DNA from: Candidatus Nomurabacteria bacterium
GTDB lineage: Bacteria > Patescibacteriota > Minisyncoccia > Phycocordibacterales > UBA9973
Reading direction: 5' to 3'
Length of the DNA stretch: 64,000 nt
Assembly: GCA_943356675.1 (NCBI GenBank)
Contig: CALRFQ010000001.1
Span: 4,147 to 68,146 of the forward strand
How positions within the stretch are numbered: the first letter of the stretch is position 1; the number at the start of each line of letters is the position of its first letter. The position numbers were made by a program, and so were the translations under genes. Under the pieces are notes generated by a model, which was not told where the DNA came from, made no database searches, and was given only the letters and a program-made list of their open reading frames with translations. Shown piece after piece: positions 5,673 through 60,836 of the stretch.

Positions 5673-5864
5673 TTAATAATGTTTTAATAATTTTCTTGTA
5701 AAAAATACGATTAAGGCGATGATTGTGAGTATCAGAGTATCCATTGGAGTATTGAAAATAAATTCATGGCCTTCTGGAGTGAAAAGAAATTTAATAATAT
5801 ATATTAGTGTAAAAATTAAAATACATATTATTAAAATAAAACCATATTTTTTAAATTTCTCCAT
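5673..5864 (-). CDS. small 2-TM membrane protein inserted between atpG and atpD
   Basis: 63-aa ORF, two hydrophobic helices (FILIICILIFTLIYIIKFLF; LILTIIALIVFF), tightly packed 5870/5864 and 5673/5657. Confidence 0.4.
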   Translation of the reverse strand: MEKFKKYGFILIICILIFTLIYIIKFLFTPEGHEFIFNTPMDTLILTIIALIVFFTRKLLKHY

Positions 5865-5869
5865 ATACT

Positions 5870-6796
5870 TTAACTTACACTTGCCATACCGGCACTAATT
5901 TCTGATATCTCCTGCGTGATCGACGCTTGGCGGGCTTTGTTGAATGCTAAGGTGAGGTCGTCTATCATTTCTCCTGCGGCTTCCGAGGCGTTCTTCATGG
6001 CTACCATTCGGGACGATTGTTCAGAAGCATTTGATTCAAGGAGCATTTGATAAATCTGCATTCGGGATAATTTCTCAGCTAAGCTTCCGATGAGTGCCTC
6101 TTGGTCGCCTTCGAAGGTGTAATCCGTTTTCCCTCTCTGGATAGAGGTCGAACCTCTATCTTCAGATAGAGGTTCGACCTCTATCTCTTCCACCAATTCT
6201 TTAATTTGCTCTTTTGATATTGGTAGGATTTGTTTGATATTTGGCTTTTGTGATAGAGCGGAAACGAAGTCGGTGTATGCTATTAAAATTTTATCGTATT
6301 TATTTTCTTTGTATTGGTCTACTACGAATTTCGATATCGGGACCACATCATTTAGATTTATATTGTCCGGCAATTCGGTGAATGTAGCAATGATATTCTT
6401 CCCTATTCTTCTCATTGCTGTGTCACCTTTCTTTCCGACTGTGACAAAATCAATTTTTGCATTATTTAAATTTACATCTGATGTTTTAAGGAGTGCCAAA
6501 ACCTTTTTTGTTACTTGCGCATTGTATGCTCCACAAAGTCCGCGGTTTGAAGTGATGAGGACAAGGAGCACATTTTTTACTTCGCGTTGAACGAATAGTG
6601 GATGTGTAATTTCCTGTGTACTATTTGCAATAGAAGTAAGAATCTCCCAAGAGTATCCAGCATATAGGCGGGATGCAAGTGTGGAAGAAACCGCGCGCTT
6701 CATCTTGGAAGCCGCCACGAGCTCCATAGCTTTCGTGATCTTTTTCGTGTTCTTCACACTCTTTATTCTTCTTTTGATTTCTTTTGTTCCTGCCAT
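5870..6796 (-). CDS. atpG: F0F1 ATP synthase gamma subunit (contains in-frame palindromic insertion)
   Basis: 308 aa; MAGTKEIKRRIKSVKNTKKITKAMELVAASKMKRA N-terminus and C-terminal SRMVAMKNASEAAGEMIDDLTLAFNKARQASITQEISEI. Confidence 0.9.
   Translation of the reverse strand: MAGTKEIKRRIKSVKNTKKITKAMELVAASKMKRAVSSTLASRLYAGYSWEILTSIANSTQEITHPLFVQREVKNVLLVLITSNRGLCGAYNAQVTKKVLALLKTSDVNLNNAKIDFVTVGKKGDTAMRRIGKNIIATFTELPDNINLNDVVPISKFVVDQYKENKYDKILIAYTDFVSALSQKPNIKQILPISKEQIKELVEEIEVEPLSEDRGSTSIQRGKTDYTFEGDQEALIGSLAEKLSRMQIYQMLLESNASEQSSRMVAMKNASEAAGEMIDDLTLAFNKARQASITQEISEISAGMASVS
6140..6185. repeat. 46-bp perfect palindromic unit (21 nt, TTCA, reverse complement of the 21 nt) in-frame inside atpG
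   Basis: GATAGAGGTCGAACCTCTATC TTCA GATAGAGGTTCGACCTCTATC. Confidence 0.8.
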
Positions 6797-6805
6797 AAAT
6801 TAAAA

Positions 6806-8308
6806 CTATTTCATGAATCCTGCTTTGAAGTCTGTAAGTGCTTTCTTGAAAGCTTCCTCACTTGCATCTTCCCACATTTTCTTCTCGCGGATATCTTTGA
6901 AGAATTGTGGAGCAGAACGCTCTGTGTATTCCACTAGGCCCTGCTCGAATTCTTTAATCTTATCCACCGGCACATCATCCATGTAGCCCTTCACGAGAGC
7001 GTATAGGATTGCCACTTGGTGCTCCACGATAACTGGTGCGTATTGTGGTTGCTTTAGTACTTCCACTGCGCGCTTTCCACGCTCAAGCTGGCGCTTTGTA
7101 GCGTCGTCGAGGTCGGAGCCGAATTGTGCGAAAGCTTCAAGTTCACGGAATTGTGCAAGGTCGAGCTTGAGAGTTCCAGCCACTTTCTTCATAGCTTTAA
7201 TCTGAGCAGATGATCCCACGCGAGACACTGAGAATCCCACGTTTACCGCTGGGCGGATACCTTTGTAGAATAAATCTGTTTCTAGGAATATTTGTCCGTC
7301 TGTAATTGAGATCACGTTTGTAGGAATGTATGCAGAGATATCGCCAGCTTGAGTCTCGATAATTGGGAGTGCTGTGATTGAACCGCCACCGTATTCCTTA
7401 TTTCTTCGGCAAGCACGCTCTAGTAGTCTTGAGTGCAAATAGAACACGTCTCCAGGGTAAGCTTCGCGTCCTGGTGGGCGGCGGAGTAGGAGTGAGATTT
7501 CGCGGTATGCTACAGCGTGTTTGGAAAGATCATCGTAAATGATGAGCACATCTTGGCCTTTATCCATAAAGTATTCAGCGATAGAAACTCCAGTATATGG
7601 AGCGATGTATGAAAGCGCAGCACTTTCTGATGCGCCAGCTGAAACGATGACTGTGTATTCCATAGCACCACCTTCTTCAAGACGAGCTTGGAGCTTGCGC
7701 AATTTAGAATCTTTTTGACCGATTGAAACGTAAACACAAACCATGTTCTGGCCCTTTTGGTTTAGGATTGCGTCGATAGCGATGGCAGTCTTTCCTGTCT
7801 GGCGGTCACCGATGATGAGCTCACGCTGTCCACGGCCGATAGGGATAATGGCGTCGATAGCTTTGATACCTGTGGAAACTGGTTGGTCCACACTTTGACG
7901 AGTGATAACTCCAGGAGCAACTTTCTCGATAGGATTTGTTTGTGTGGTTTTGATTGCACCTTTTCCATCAATCGCATCTCCGCGGGCATTCACCACACGG
8001 CCGATTAGCGCATCGCCTACATTTACCTCCAATATCTTTCCTGTTGCACGAACTTCGTCGCCTTCTTTAATATCTGCAAATTCTCCGAGAATAATAACTC
8101 CAACGAATTCTTCTTCAAGGTTGAGCGCAACTCCCACGACTCCTGTTGGGAATGTCACCATTTCTGATGCTTTGATATCTGAAAGTCCTGAAATTTTTGC
8201 AATACCGTCGAACACTTCCACGACTTTACCCACTTTCTCAACTGCCACTTCAGAAGTGAAGTTTTCGATTTGCTTTCTTAAATTGTCTACAATGTTATTT
8301 TTGGCCAT
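6806..8308 (-). CDS. atpA: F0F1 ATP synthase alpha subunit
   Basis: 500 aa; Walker [10 protein letters not shown]. Confidence 0.95.
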
Positions 8309-9590: not shown

Positions 9591-10517
9591 TTAATGCACA
9601 TCTTTGTGCTCACCACCCTCACTTTCTTCATGATGCTCATCATCATGATCTTGTGATGCTATTGTGTAGTACACAAGAGTAAGGATGGCGAAAATGAATG
9701 CTTGTATCACACCGACGAAAACTTCAAGAAGAAGAAATGGTGTCGGTAGTACGTAAGCGATAATGGCTCCCATAGATGCGAGGAGAACCTCTCCTGCAAA
9801 TACGTTTCCGAAAAGACGAAATGACAGTGATGCAATCTTAGCGAATTCTCCGATAAGTTCGAGTGCACTAACGAAAACCATGATTGGAGCAGTAAGTAAT
9901 ACCATTGGTTCCTTACGAATTTTCGTAAAAATCCCTCCAATTGCCTTCAGATTAACATATTTGTTGAAAGTTTTCCAGAGACCTATAGATATAACTCCGA
10001 AGATGTTTGCACCTAGAACTGAGAGGATGGCGAGTGGTAATGTGCCGTTAATATCGGCAGTACCTGAGCGGATAAATGGGATGAATGCTCTGCCGTGCTC
10101 CCCTGCTTCTATAAGGCCAAATCCGCCGAGTGGCAATATTCCAAGCCAGTTGTTGAGTAGTACTACAAAGAAAACTGAGAATACTATAGGGAAAGCTTTG
10201 TTTGTGATCTTGCGACTGTTTGTGACTTGGTCACAAAGGTCTAGTGCTCCGTCGATAACTAGCTCAAAAAGATTTTGAATTCCTTTTGGAATCTTCTTGA
10301 GTGATAGGCGAACAGCAAGTGCGATTATAAAAATGATGACTACTACTATCCAGCTTGTGAATAGTGAGTTTGTGATAGTGAAATTGCCAATGTGAGCTAT
10401 CGGCTCTGCGTATAGAGTAGACTCGTGAGTGATTTCTGTATTTGCTGTTTCAGTAGGTGCTCCAGTTTCGGAATTAAGGTTTGTATTAAGTTCTGTATTA
10501 TTTATTTCTTGTGTCAT
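9591..10517 (-). CDS. atpB: F0F1 ATP synthase subunit a, with N-terminal extension and His/Glu-rich C-terminal tail
   Basis: 308 aa; conserved LSFRLFGNVFAGEVLL region. Confidence 0.85.
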   Translation of the reverse strand: MTQEINNTELNTNLNSETGAPTETANTEITHESTLYAEPIAHIGNFTITNSLFTSWIVVVIIFIIALAVRLSLKKIPKGIQNLFELVIDGALDLCDQVTNSRKITNKAFPIVFSVFFVVLLNNWLGILPLGGFGLIEAGEHGRAFIPFIRSGTADINGTLPLAILSVLGANIFGVISIGLWKTFNKYVNLKAIGGIFTKIRKEPMVLLTAPIMVFVSALELIGEFAKIASLSFRLFGNVFAGEVLLASMGAIIAYVLPTPFLLLEVFVGVIQAFIFAILTLVYYTIASQDHDDEHHEESEGGEHKDVH

Positions 10518-58998: not shown

Positions 58999-59077
58999 CT
59001 ACAGACTAGGTTCTAGTAGCTAGTGACTAGGTTGCCTTTTTAAGAATTTTATTTTGTTTTTTCTAGAAACTAGAACC
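58997..59077. repeat. inverted repeat CTAGGTTCTAG ... CTAGAACCTAG-like arms flanking 55 bp, between alaS and the PilM-like gene
   Basis: ACTAGGTTCTAGTAGCTAGTGACTAGG ... CTAGAAACTAGAACCTAACTACTAGAAACTA; CTAG-rich. Confidence 0.5.
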
Positions 59078-59090
59078 TAACTACTAGAAA

Positions 59091-60836
59091 CTAATCCAAT
59101 ACTGCTTTAATACGGCGGATGCCAGCTGCTACTGCTTCTTCTTTTTGAATTTTGAAATACCCAAGTTCTTTTGTATTTGTGACGTGTGGTCCTCCGCAGA
59201 ATTCTTTTGAGAATTGATTGCCACTTTCGTCTTCGACGAAGTATACAGATACAGTTTCAGGATACTTTGCTCCGAATTCCATCTGTGCACCAATCTTCTC
59301 CGCCTCAGCAAGCGGCATTTCTCGGCGAATTACATTCAGTCCTGCACTTATCTTCTCATTTACGAGGTCTTCCACCTTCTTTTTCTCTTCATCTGTAAGT
59401 TTGTGGTCGCACATGAAGTCTATACGTAGTCTCTCTTCTGTAATATTACTTCCTCTTTGCTTAATATCAGGGCTCACAACTTTCTGCAGTGCTGCTAAAA
59501 GCAAATGATGTGCGGTATGCAAACGAATTGTCTTCTCATTGTGATTTGCAAGTCCACCTTTAAACATTCCCGCAGAAGAAGTTTGTGATAGTTTCTGGTG
59601 CTCCGCCATTTTCTGATTGAAATCTTCTAAATTAATTTCAATTCCTTTTTCCTTAGCAATTTCGAGTGTAAGTTCTATTGGAAAACCGTAAGTAGTAGCT
59701 AGAACAAATGGATCTGTACCTTTTTCGAATTCTTTGAGTCCATTTGTGAGTGTTTGTCGGAATTTAGACTCTTCATTTGCAATTTCTTTCTTAATTACTT
59801 CACTATTTGAAAGTAGTTCTGGGTATACATCCTTGTACTGCTCTATAATAATGTCGACAATTTGAGAAAGCGCTTCATTTTTGAAGCCCAAAGTATCTGC
59901 AAACCTTACTGCACGGCGAAGTAATCGGCGTAGGATATATCCGCGTCCTGTGTTTCCGGGAATTGCACCGTCTGCCATTATAAATACGCTTGTACGAATA
60001 TGATCAGCTACAATTCTTTTTGCTTTTGTATTATCTACTGTTGAGTGTTCGTTTATTTTAGAAATAATATTTGAAAATAGATCAGTATCAAAAATATTAT
60101 TTTTACCCTGAACTGCCATAACGACACGCTCAAGTCCTGAGCCAGTGTCTACGTTCTGTTGAGATAATTTTCCGACAACTTTCCCATCCTTTTTCACATA
60201 CTGCATGAAAACATCGTTCCAAATTTCTACAACTTTCTGAGACTCATCGGCTTTCATGTATTCTTCCTTTGTAAGGTCACCAAGCCCTTCTGTTGTGACA
60301 TCATAAAACATCTCAGTGTCTGGTCCGCATGGGCCATTATCTCCCACACTCCACCAGTTTGACTTCGCTCCCATGAAATAAATTCTATTCTCAGGAATAA
60401 ACTTTTTCCAAATCTCAAACGCTTCTGTATCCTTTGGAGAATTTTCGTCACCCTCAAACACAGTTACATAAAGTCTATTTGGATCAAGCCCAAGTCCTTC
60501 ATCTTTTGAAGTTAGAAATTCATAGCTCCATGCTATGGCCTCATCCTTGAAATAATCTCCTAGAGACCAGTTACCCATCATTTCGAAAAATGTGTCATGA
60601 GTATTGTCACCTACTTCATCTATATCTTGAGTGCGGACGCATTTCTGAACGTTTACAAGCTTAGTTCCTAGTGGATGCTTCTCGCCCATTAAATACGGCA
60701 CAAGAGGCTGCATACCAGCAGTGTTGAAAAGCACAGATGGATCGTTCTCTGGCACGAGTGATGCTGAAGGTATTATTTTGTGGCCGCGCTTCTCAAAAAA
60801 TGTTAGGAAGCGAGAGCGGATTTCATTTGATTGCAT
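59091..60836 (-). CDS. alaS: alanyl-tRNA synthetase, compact form (catalytic + tRNA-recognition + editing domains, no C-Ala domain)
   Basis: 581 aa; class II motifs, editing-site HTAHHLL and CGGPHV. Confidence 0.9.
   Translation of the reverse strand: MQSNEIRSRFLTFFEKRGHKIIPSASLVPENDPSVLFNTAGMQPLVPYLMGEKHPLGTKLVNVQKCVRTQDIDEVGDNTHDTFFEMMGNWSLGDYFKDEAIAWSYEFLTSKDEGLGLDPNRLYVTVFEGDENSPKDTEAFEIWKKFIPENRIYFMGAKSNWWSVGDNGPCGPDTEMFYDVTTEGLGDLTKEEYMKADESQKVVEIWNDVFMQYVKKDGKVVGKLSQQNVDTGSGLERVVMAVQGKNNIFDTDLFSNIISKINEHSTVDNTKAKRIVADHIRTSVFIMADGAIPGNTGRGYILRRLLRRAVRFADTLGFKNEALSQIVDIIIEQYKDVYPELLSNSEVIKKEIANEESKFRQTLTNGLKEFEKGTDPFVLATTYGFPIELTLEIAKEKGIEINLEDFNQKMAEHQKLSQTSSAGMFKGGLANHNEKTIRLHTAHHLLLAALQKVVSPDIKQRGSNITEERLRIDFMCDHKLTDEEKKKVEDLVNEKISAGLNVIRREMPLAEAEKIGAQMEFGAKYPETVSVYFVEDESGNQFSKEFCGGPHVTNTKELGYFKIQKEEAVAAGIRRIKAVLD

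Follow-up and report, generated by a model that had tools for sequence, protein, structure and literature searches.

The ATP synthase gamma gene and its palindrome

The 64,000-nucleotide stretch of a Candidatus Nomurabacteria genome considered here (contig CALRFQ010000001.1, positions 4,147 to 68,146; "the window" in what follows) carries on its minus strand an ATP synthase operon of the order atpB-E-F-H-A-G-D-C. Within its atpG gene, which encodes the gamma subunit of the F1 ATP synthase, lies a 46-bp palindrome made up of two inverted copies of a 21-nt unit with 4 nt between them (Table 1). The palindrome is in frame, and the open reading frame (ORF) is intact and specifies a full-length gamma subunit. 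On grounds developed below, the 21-nt sequences are referred to as REP (repetitive extragenic palindromic) units and the whole as a doublet.

Table 1. Features of the atpG locus and of the transposase genes that accompany the repeat; positions are those of the window unless a contig is named
Feature	Position	Strand	Description
atpG, F1 ATP synthase gamma subunit, 308 aa	5870..6796	-	ORF; Pfam PF00231 (ATP-synt), E 1e-88; full-length alignment to solved gamma chains
Patch shared with the P0004 allele	6137..6191 (gene nt 606-660)	.	~55 nt; from four-sequence site patterns
Element-encoded peptide IEVEPLSEDRGSTSI	6140..6184	-	atpG codons 205-219
REP unit 1	6140..6160	.	GATAGAGGTCGAACCTCTATC; CGA loop variant of consensus GATAGAGGTT(T/A)AACCTCTATC
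Spacer TTCA	6161..6164	.	4 nt; outer T..A pair, central TC unpaired
REP unit 2	6165..6185	.	GATAGAGGTTCGACCTCTATC; exact reverse complement of unit 1
Transposase ORF, ~220 aa	L089 11-670	-	multi-copy hairpin contig
Transposase ORF, ~220 aa	L086 4622-5308	+	multi-copy hairpin contig
Transposase ORF, ~220 aa	L165 2356-3036	+	multi-copy hairpin contig

An earlier note on this DNA had described a perfect palindrome at 6140-6185 that encodes the same peptide on both strands. The sequence, its place and the exact reverse complementarity of the two units are as described there, and a repeat search delimits inverted arms of 22 nt each (6140-6161 and 6164-6185) that are 100% complementary (22/22) and lie 2 nt apart. 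However, the symmetry extends to 44 of the 46 positions rather than to all of them, because the central TC is not self-complementary. Likewise the plus-strand reading across the palindrome, IEVEPLSSDRGSTSIS, resembles the minus-strand peptide IEVEPLSEDRGSTSI but is not the same, the central residue being the only one to differ. Each 21-nt unit folds by itself, as the note had also proposed, into a hairpin (stem of 9 bp, loop of 3 nt), and since both units do so the palindrome doubles as a direct repeat (86%, period 25). Folded as single-stranded DNA, a single unit gives -7.4 to -8 kcal/mol (z about -5) and the whole palindrome -23 kcal/mol (z about -10). None of 100 dinucleotide shuffles of the window matched the 21-mer at <=3 mismatches, and a chance origin of the palindrome is excluded.

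In alignments to solved gamma chains, chain 9o19_G shows a gap at query residues 205-220 and the alignment to E. coli gamma chains is gapped at 192-207; the linker in which the element sits is therefore one that the model enzymes lack. The estimate in the earlier note that this region is about 16 aa longer than in E. coli proves accurate, the alignment gap comprising exactly 16 residues (IEVEPLSEDRGSTSIQ). An AlphaFold2 model of the subunit has the usual gamma fold at modest quality (mean predicted local distance difference test score, pLDDT, of 63.6), in which residues 205-222, located between a helix at 195-205 and the start of the C-terminal helix at 232, score below 50. The element peptide is predicted by this model to sit in a disordered linker of gamma; the note had raised the question whether the insert falls in a surface loop.

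Amplification chimeras can create palindromes, but atpG is identical (100% over 927 nt) in three further assemblies from independent samples (ENA, NCBI, Logan), and related copies of the element are present in many samples. An assembly artifact is excluded because the same gene stands in four independent assemblies.

A dispersed family of 21-nt hairpin repeats

A scan of the JGI metagenome collection for GATAGAGGTNNNACCTCTATC returned 107 units in 89 stretches, about 68 of which are low-GC contigs (0.30-0.45 GC), many of them from groundwater small-cell fractions. The 83 unique copies in low-GC contigs yield the consensus CA-GATAGAGGTT(T/A)AACCTCTATC-TG, in which the loops TTA (29 copies) and TAA (30 copies) represent the two orientations of one odd palindrome. 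Beyond the CA/TG pair further flanking bases are often mutually complementary but variable among copies. Several contigs carry more than one copy, with four in 3.8 kb in L165 and three each in L086, L089 and L169. Intergenic copies resemble the tops of terminators, e.g. aaaatccccca...tgggggatttt, and one stands directly after a tRNA gene. About 30% of the unique copies (25-28 of 84) lie inside open frames of at least 150-200 aa, where they read (Q)IEVKPLS or DRGLTSI according to orientation, these being the sole stop-free frames of the consensus. The spacer of 4 nt gives doublets a period of 25 nt, and both units therefore fall in their open reading frames.

Half of a hairpin is seldom found alone: lone 9-mer half-sites account for 14 of 186, mostly as degenerate units, so that what is repeated is the hairpin and not some short word of the uptake type. 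On this count the idea of an uptake signal, similar to the DNA uptake sequences and uptake signal sequences (DUS/USS), was rejected.

The same 9-bp stems also occur in GC-rich contigs (GC 0.53-0.59) from a different organism group, among them L101, L103, L104, L113, L117, L123, L155, L156 and L160, where they stand in the constant context aaggagttGATAGAGGTCTRACCTCTATCgggtgggagggtggg; this element is probably unrelated to the low-GC repeat family. A related variant, CAGATAGAGCTTTAGACTCTA-GA-TAGAGTCTAAAGCTCTATCTG, forms a 44-nt perfect palindrome in another Paceibacteria genome (L006 3989-4032), where it is intergenic and lies 12 nt upstream of the atpG start.

A RayT-like Y1 transposase linked to the repeat

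Multi-copy hairpin contigs encode a protein of ~220 aa (Table 1) with the motifs YHIYNRG, NPNHFHFV (the HUH motif) and GYVNKNY. The ORFs of L089, L086 and L165 match the Pfam family Y1_Tnp (transposase IS200-like) at 28-29 bits, where the cut-off is 23, and the best NCBIfam model is REP_Tyr_transpos, the REP-associated tyrosine transposase (RAYT or RayT), at 31 bits. Homologs were found by tblastn in ~12 hairpin-bearing contigs, and the family comprises 3124 homologs at E <=1e-5; their source names are transposase of Paceibacterota, Nomurabacteria, Minisyncoccia or Patescibacteria and, at JGI, "REP element-mobilizing transposase RayT".

In each case one hairpin stands just 5' of the start codon, a second within the ORF and a third over the stop codon. 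The last residues of the protein are ...LPDRG*, with the stop codon supplied by the hairpin loop TAA, and the internal copy is in frame and encodes ..LRKTQIEVKPLSEPLV.. immediately before the HUH motif. The internal repeat and the repeat-derived end are both kept in all of the best 120 of the 3124 homologs, and among these 120 the two segments change together: an internal IAPKALS is found with the C-terminus PDSA (15 homologs), IESK(P/A)LS with PDRV (14 homologs) and IE(V/A)KPLS with PDRG (10 homologs). Because the internal segment and the C-terminus covary, each transposase lineage has its own hairpin variant. The presence of a repeat in the transposase ORF, together with the stop codon that a repeat supplies, may be autoregulatory. 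Judged from these sequence arrangements, the repeat family appears to be the cognate repeat of the ~220-aa single-domain Y1 HUH transposase of the RayT type. The proposal in the earlier note, namely that a palindromic mobile element had been inserted in frame, is thereby supported, the 107 dispersed units being tied to a Y1 RayT-like transposase.

Alleles of the gamma loop

The top protein matches of the atpG product are gamma subunits of Candidatus Nomurabacteria, Paceibacterota and Patescibacteria. The earlier note had supposed that 48 bp might be absent from related orthologs, and this was not found; the nearest of these (P0002, P0003, P0005, P0006 and P0007; 88-93% identical) have a loop of equal length and unrelated, non-palindromic sequence (IDTVGENKEVKDELDKSITKK). 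Nor do the relatives all carry the same segment without its symmetry, which the note took as the sign of an ancestral sequence. In comparison with these relatives the event looks like a short-patch replacement, not a simple 48-bp addition. The idea that the loop of P0002 and P0007 is a decayed copy is unsupported, as inspection of the alignment by eye showed no similarity above background.

An allelic form of the element is found in P0004 (91% identical), whose loop peptide IEVEPLSSDRGSTSIQ is the other-strand reading. The DNA of P0004 has the palindrome of the window unchanged except for a flip of the central dinucleotide, such that the coding strand has TTCA vs TGAA in the window. This TC/GA flip would be the expected product of inverting the hairpin loop or the whole palindrome; the probability of arriving at the exact complement by two independent substitutions is about 1 in 9. 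Four-sequence site patterns bear on the history of the two alleles. Over gene nt 606-660 all of the informative sites (32/32) group the sequences as (window,P0004)(P0002,P0007), whereas 36 sites of the flanking backbone group them as (window,P0002)(P0004,P0007). The discordant patterns therefore mark a palindrome patch of ~55 nt that is common to two gene backgrounds, and such sharing fits either short-patch recombination or two loop alleles that would be segregating in the population.

More distant orthologs show further states of the loop. P0010, of a more distant subclade, has a single consensus unit in the same loop (SEIEVKPLSA), and P0011 of the same subclade has a perfect 48-nt palindromic doublet, AGATAGAGTCTAAACCTCTATCTAT/ATAGATAGAGGTTTAGACTCTATCT, of the IESKPLS variant, whose arms are perfectly complementary, yet each of its units is only a 7-bp hairpin. 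P0008 has neither unit nor doublet, and its loop has the length of that of P0010. In an unbiased species sample such a palindrome is present in ~4 of 69 Patescibacteria atpG genes and in none of 12 proteobacterial ones.

This distribution bears on the idea that the palindrome serves the atp operon as a cis-element and was selected in place, e.g. as a hairpin for the stability or processing of the mRNA, as a pause site or as a palindrome to which a protein binds. Such a role would agree with the very stable fold of the whole palindrome as mRNA (-39 kcal/mol, z -7.25) and with the recurrence of unrelated palindromes in the same two gamma loops of other lineages (L005, L178, L179, L180, L038, L042 and L001; see below). 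However, the element is missing from the nearest orthologs, is sporadic among the Patescibacteria and is found as the same sequence in unrelated genes and at intergenic sites. Moreover, no terminator-like site, including a T-run after the hairpin, is present at 6140-6185 on either strand, an E-value scan of nine hairpin-bearing loci gave no Rfam match at the hairpins, and the hairpin has only Watson-Crick pairs and none of the G-U pairs that selection at the RNA level would leave. A cis-element selected in place is therefore very improbable, and a conserved RNA structure of the atp operon was rejected because of the sporadic distribution and the occurrence of the same sequence elsewhere.

Inverted doublets in DnaE and DNA ligase

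The architecture of the window copy, i.e. unit, 4 nt and inverted unit with a 25-nt period, recurs in DnaE (L145 and L111) and in the NAD-dependent ligase LigA (L107 and L099), and a doublet of this kind is also present in L173. The LigA gene of L107 and the DnaE gene of L111 share an identical 52-nt doublet, CGA-unit-TACA-unit-TCG, and its occurrence in two different genes argues that the doublet itself is mobile. Among the DnaE homologs there is no clean empty site for the doublet, the site being a hypervariable loop of 0 to ~80 aa.

Further sequences were noted at these sites. The DnaE site of the GATAGAGG doublet (L145 and L111) is the loop between GGFTVI and IRFGFYTIKNLG in the P0256 fragment, and the loop peptide of P0256 DnaE (78% identical), KVGASQSEAPTF, back-translates, at the protein level only, to a different palindrome. 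The LigA of L099, a 349-aa fragment, has extra segments in comparison with that of L107, including PPLLNKERGLGG; its PLLNKER is encoded by the hairpin CCCTCTCCTTaacAAGGAGAGGG, and the same hairpin is found in loop 2 of the L009 atpG. A further hairpin, AGTTGCTAGGTCTTGCCTAGCAACT, adjoins the doublet of L107 at about 7090-7120.

A local origin has to be weighed against import of the doublet. According to this explanation no doublet was transposed, and a single hairpin, or ordinary loop sequence, became an inverted doublet in situ when replication switched templates or synthesis folded back. It would account for arms that are 100% identical including the rare loop variant of the window, for the perfectly complementary arms of P0011 despite unit hairpins of 7 bp, for the single unit in the same loop of P0010, for the single hairpin of another family that L003 has where L001 has a doublet, and for the many copies with variable but mutually complementary flanks. 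It does not account for the 21-nt unit, which is identical in ~100 unrelated contexts and hence imported, nor for the recurrence of doublets of 25-nt period in unrelated genes, and the identical 52-nt doublet in LigA and DnaE implies a doublet that moves. Local synthesis thus explains the step from singlet to doublet but not where the sequence came from, and as an account of the palindrome it is improbable.

Other palindromes and inserted reading frames

Unrelated double-hairpin palindromes are found in frame in other Patescibacteria gamma genes, either in the loop of the element or in a second one, also variable, at about aa 104-114; they lie in loop 1 in L001, L038 and L042, in loop 2 in L005, L179 and L180, and in both loops in L178. 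In P0004 the atpG gene has in loop 1 (L001 3323-3375) a second, unrelated perfect palindrome, ATTTCTGGAAGTCGGACTTCCAGAA-TAT-TTCTGGAAGTCCGACTTCCAGAAAT, whose two arms of 25 nt each form a hairpin, and P0007 has a single unit at the matching loop-1 place (L003 about 10324-10347). Other double-hairpin families are at L005 5583-5629; L178 10636-10684, 10316-10364 and 13230-13278; L179 10652-10698 and 17945-17989; L180 8401-8444; L042 5361-5410 and 7259-7292; and L040 4272-4305. Examples of their sequences are GCGGAAGC..GCTTCCGC, TTGGGGACTWAGTCCCCAA and TGGAGGCCTTGCCTCCA. Such families also occur in further genes: the L042/L040 element in an ORF of ~500 aa beside atpG, one of L178 in a methylase gene and one of L180 in priA.

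The atp operon of the clade is in addition interrupted by small variable ORFs at the atpA/atpG and atpG/atpD junctions. In the window a hydrophobic ORF of 63 aa (5673-5864, minus strand) lies between atpG and atpD, and none lies between atpA and atpG. The ORFs inserted in relatives are of 89-279 aa and include a Bro-N domain protein and a 23S_rRNA_IVP protein (L001 2725-2994; L002 1029-1412; L003 9508-9996 and 10938-11255; L173 10974-11369; L178 8821-9981). Elsewhere in the window, at 59004-59096, overlapping inverted and direct repeats are built on CTAGAAACTAGAACCTA-like words that are unrelated to the atpG element.

Comparison with known repeat systems

The system of REP sequences, bacterial interspersed mosaic elements (BIMEs) and REPINs (REP doublets that form hairpins) with their RAYT transposases, known from Escherichia coli and Pseudomonas, shares a number of features with the repeats described here. 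Both have a short hairpin unit (about 21-25 nt) that in inverted doublets gives one long hairpin, many dispersed copies, of which many are terminator-like and just 3' of genes, and a small Y1 HUH transposase gene that is flanked by the repeat, with repeat and transposase variants that covary. However, other features differ. The genome that hosts them here is an ultra-small one of the Patescibacteria; the unit, CAGATAGAGG...CCTCTATCTG, has ATAG/CTAT in place of GTAG or CGTC; the spacer of the doublet is just 4 nt; the transposase ORF has a repeat inside it and is closed by a stop codon that lies in a second; and the window, as a genome fragment, has a single doublet and no transposase. The location differs as well, in that the window copy is in atpG, not extragenic, and ~30% of the sampled family copies are in long open frames.

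Intragenic REPs are nevertheless a documented phenomenon. Di Nocera, De Gregorio and Rocco (2013; PMC3733652) described intragenic REP monomers and in-frame dimers, the latter encoding 20-30 aa, with examples from Opitutus terrae, Thauera and Rickettsia conorii; such REPs are a minority, are enriched in replication and repair genes including those of DnaE and ligase, and supply stop codons through REP termini. The same source defines REPs by a GTAG or CGTC tetranucleotide at one end of the unit and equates some elements of Rickettsia (RPE-4 and RPE-6) with CGTC-tagged REPs. The REP/RAYT arrangement, as it is given in that article and in the abstracts of other reports, matches the layout of hairpin and transposase seen here (PMC3733652). 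In common with the intragenic REPs of Di Nocera and co-workers, the present doublets are in-frame dimers that add about 16-30 residues to known proteins, and DnaE and ligase are hit here too (L145, L111, L107 and L099); stop codons supplied by the ends of repeats are likewise common to both. They differ in sequence family, phylum and host gene, atpG in this case, and in that the sampled loci act as a hypervariable cassette whose content switches between different palindromes and unrelated sequence of about the same length. The element thus shares its architecture and behavior with known intragenic REPs; the kind is known, and the host phylum, the tag, the spacer and the embedded repeat differ. 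Within the literature library that was searched, nothing relevant links RAYT/REP, palindromic or in-frame elements with Patescibacteria, and a search for the sequence string of the unit was equally negative.

The earlier note had named the Rickettsia palindromic elements (RPEs) as the known analog. The analogy stands insofar as both are in-frame palindromic repeats in genes that stay functional, in a reduced genome, and an in-frame palindrome in a functional gene is a hallmark of RPEs; it does not extend to kinship, for which the REP/REPIN-RAYT systems are the closer match. RPEs have no sequence relation to the present unit, which lacks the CGTC tag, is with its 21 nt far shorter, comes from another host phylum and apparently has its own cognate Y1 transposase. 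RPE-1 has a length of about 100-150 bp, and RPEs are not known to be accompanied by a cognate transposase in the genome. That the palindrome is a member of the RPE family, or else a sequencing or assembly artifact of the kind discussed above, is hardly credible.

Very short hairpin-forming mobile inserts are also found in mitochondria, as GC clusters, double-hairpin elements and "byp" inserts, which are GC-richer than the AT-rich genomes that hold them and are sometimes in protein genes. The double-hairpin architecture is common to these inserts and the present element. The mitochondrial inserts are organellar and byps are skipped by the ribosome, and the inserts are not known to have a Y1 transposase. 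The atpG element has an open frame and a length that is a multiple of three, both of which favor ordinary translation over a byp-like bypass.

Origin and significance of the atpG element

The 46-bp palindrome is probably a REPIN-like REP doublet that is cognate to a RayT-type Y1 transposase and belongs to a family of Paceibacteria/Nomurabacteria-type Patescibacteria. The atpG copy would have arrived by single-strand, hairpin-directed transposition by means of a RayT-like Y1 transposase or, by an alternative route, through recombination with an allele that had gained the doublet by transposition. It would have survived because it is in frame, stop-free and in a surface linker of gamma that presumably tolerates any sequence, and it would be translated into 15-16 extra loop residues with no function of their own. 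The sporadic distribution, the sequences common to unrelated genes and the disordered site speak for such copies being tolerated selfish or neutral passengers and against an atp-specific function.

A number of observations weigh against a REPIN-RayT origin. The loop variant of the window, CGA/TCG, is rare, being found in 2 of 107 metagenome units, and both arms are identical even in this private variant, so that the doublet could have been made or homogenized locally, e.g. by template switching or hairpin-templated repair. The tag of the unit is ATAG, not the GTAG or CGTC of the described REP super-families, and the 31 bits of the transposase against the NCBIfam RAYT model are below its equivalog cut-off of 80. 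A tblastn search found no homolog of the transposase either in the window or at any of the atpG loci. The 64-kb window has no other copy of the unit at <=3 mismatches, nor under the looser pattern GATAG-N11-CTATC, and 838 kb of atp-operon neighborhoods contain only the atpG doublets and one intergenic copy. Finally, there is no clean empty site for the palindrome among the aligned orthologs, the closest having the unrelated loop of equal length.

A more far-reaching reading would join the atpG doublet with the other loop palindromes. In tiny, intergenic-poor Patescibacteria genomes REPIN-RayT systems would persist largely by settling in those loops of essential proteins that are permissive (in gamma both loops, and further DnaE, LigA, PriA and the transposase itself), and the loops would act as cassettes in which different hairpin doublets, or unrelated sequence of equal length, are exchanged for each other by the transposase or by short-patch recombination. 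This reading is tentative and rather unlikely to hold in full; if it is true, REP-coded peptides would be a systematic source of protein loop variation in the radiation.

Our understanding of ATP synthase is unchanged by the finding. As a practical matter, the repeat is a marker for strain typing and for the detection of recombination, and it flags palindromes that are able to disturb assembly and alignment. The REPIN-like reading also explains hypervariable, low-complexity-looking loop inserts such as IEVKPLS and DRGLTSI, which could otherwise be mistaken for lineage-specific functional motifs. For the Paceibacteria/Nomurabacteria-like Patescibacteria it very likely means that a repeat system of the REP-RayT type exists in these organisms and that its hairpins are carried as tolerated, translated passengers in essential genes.

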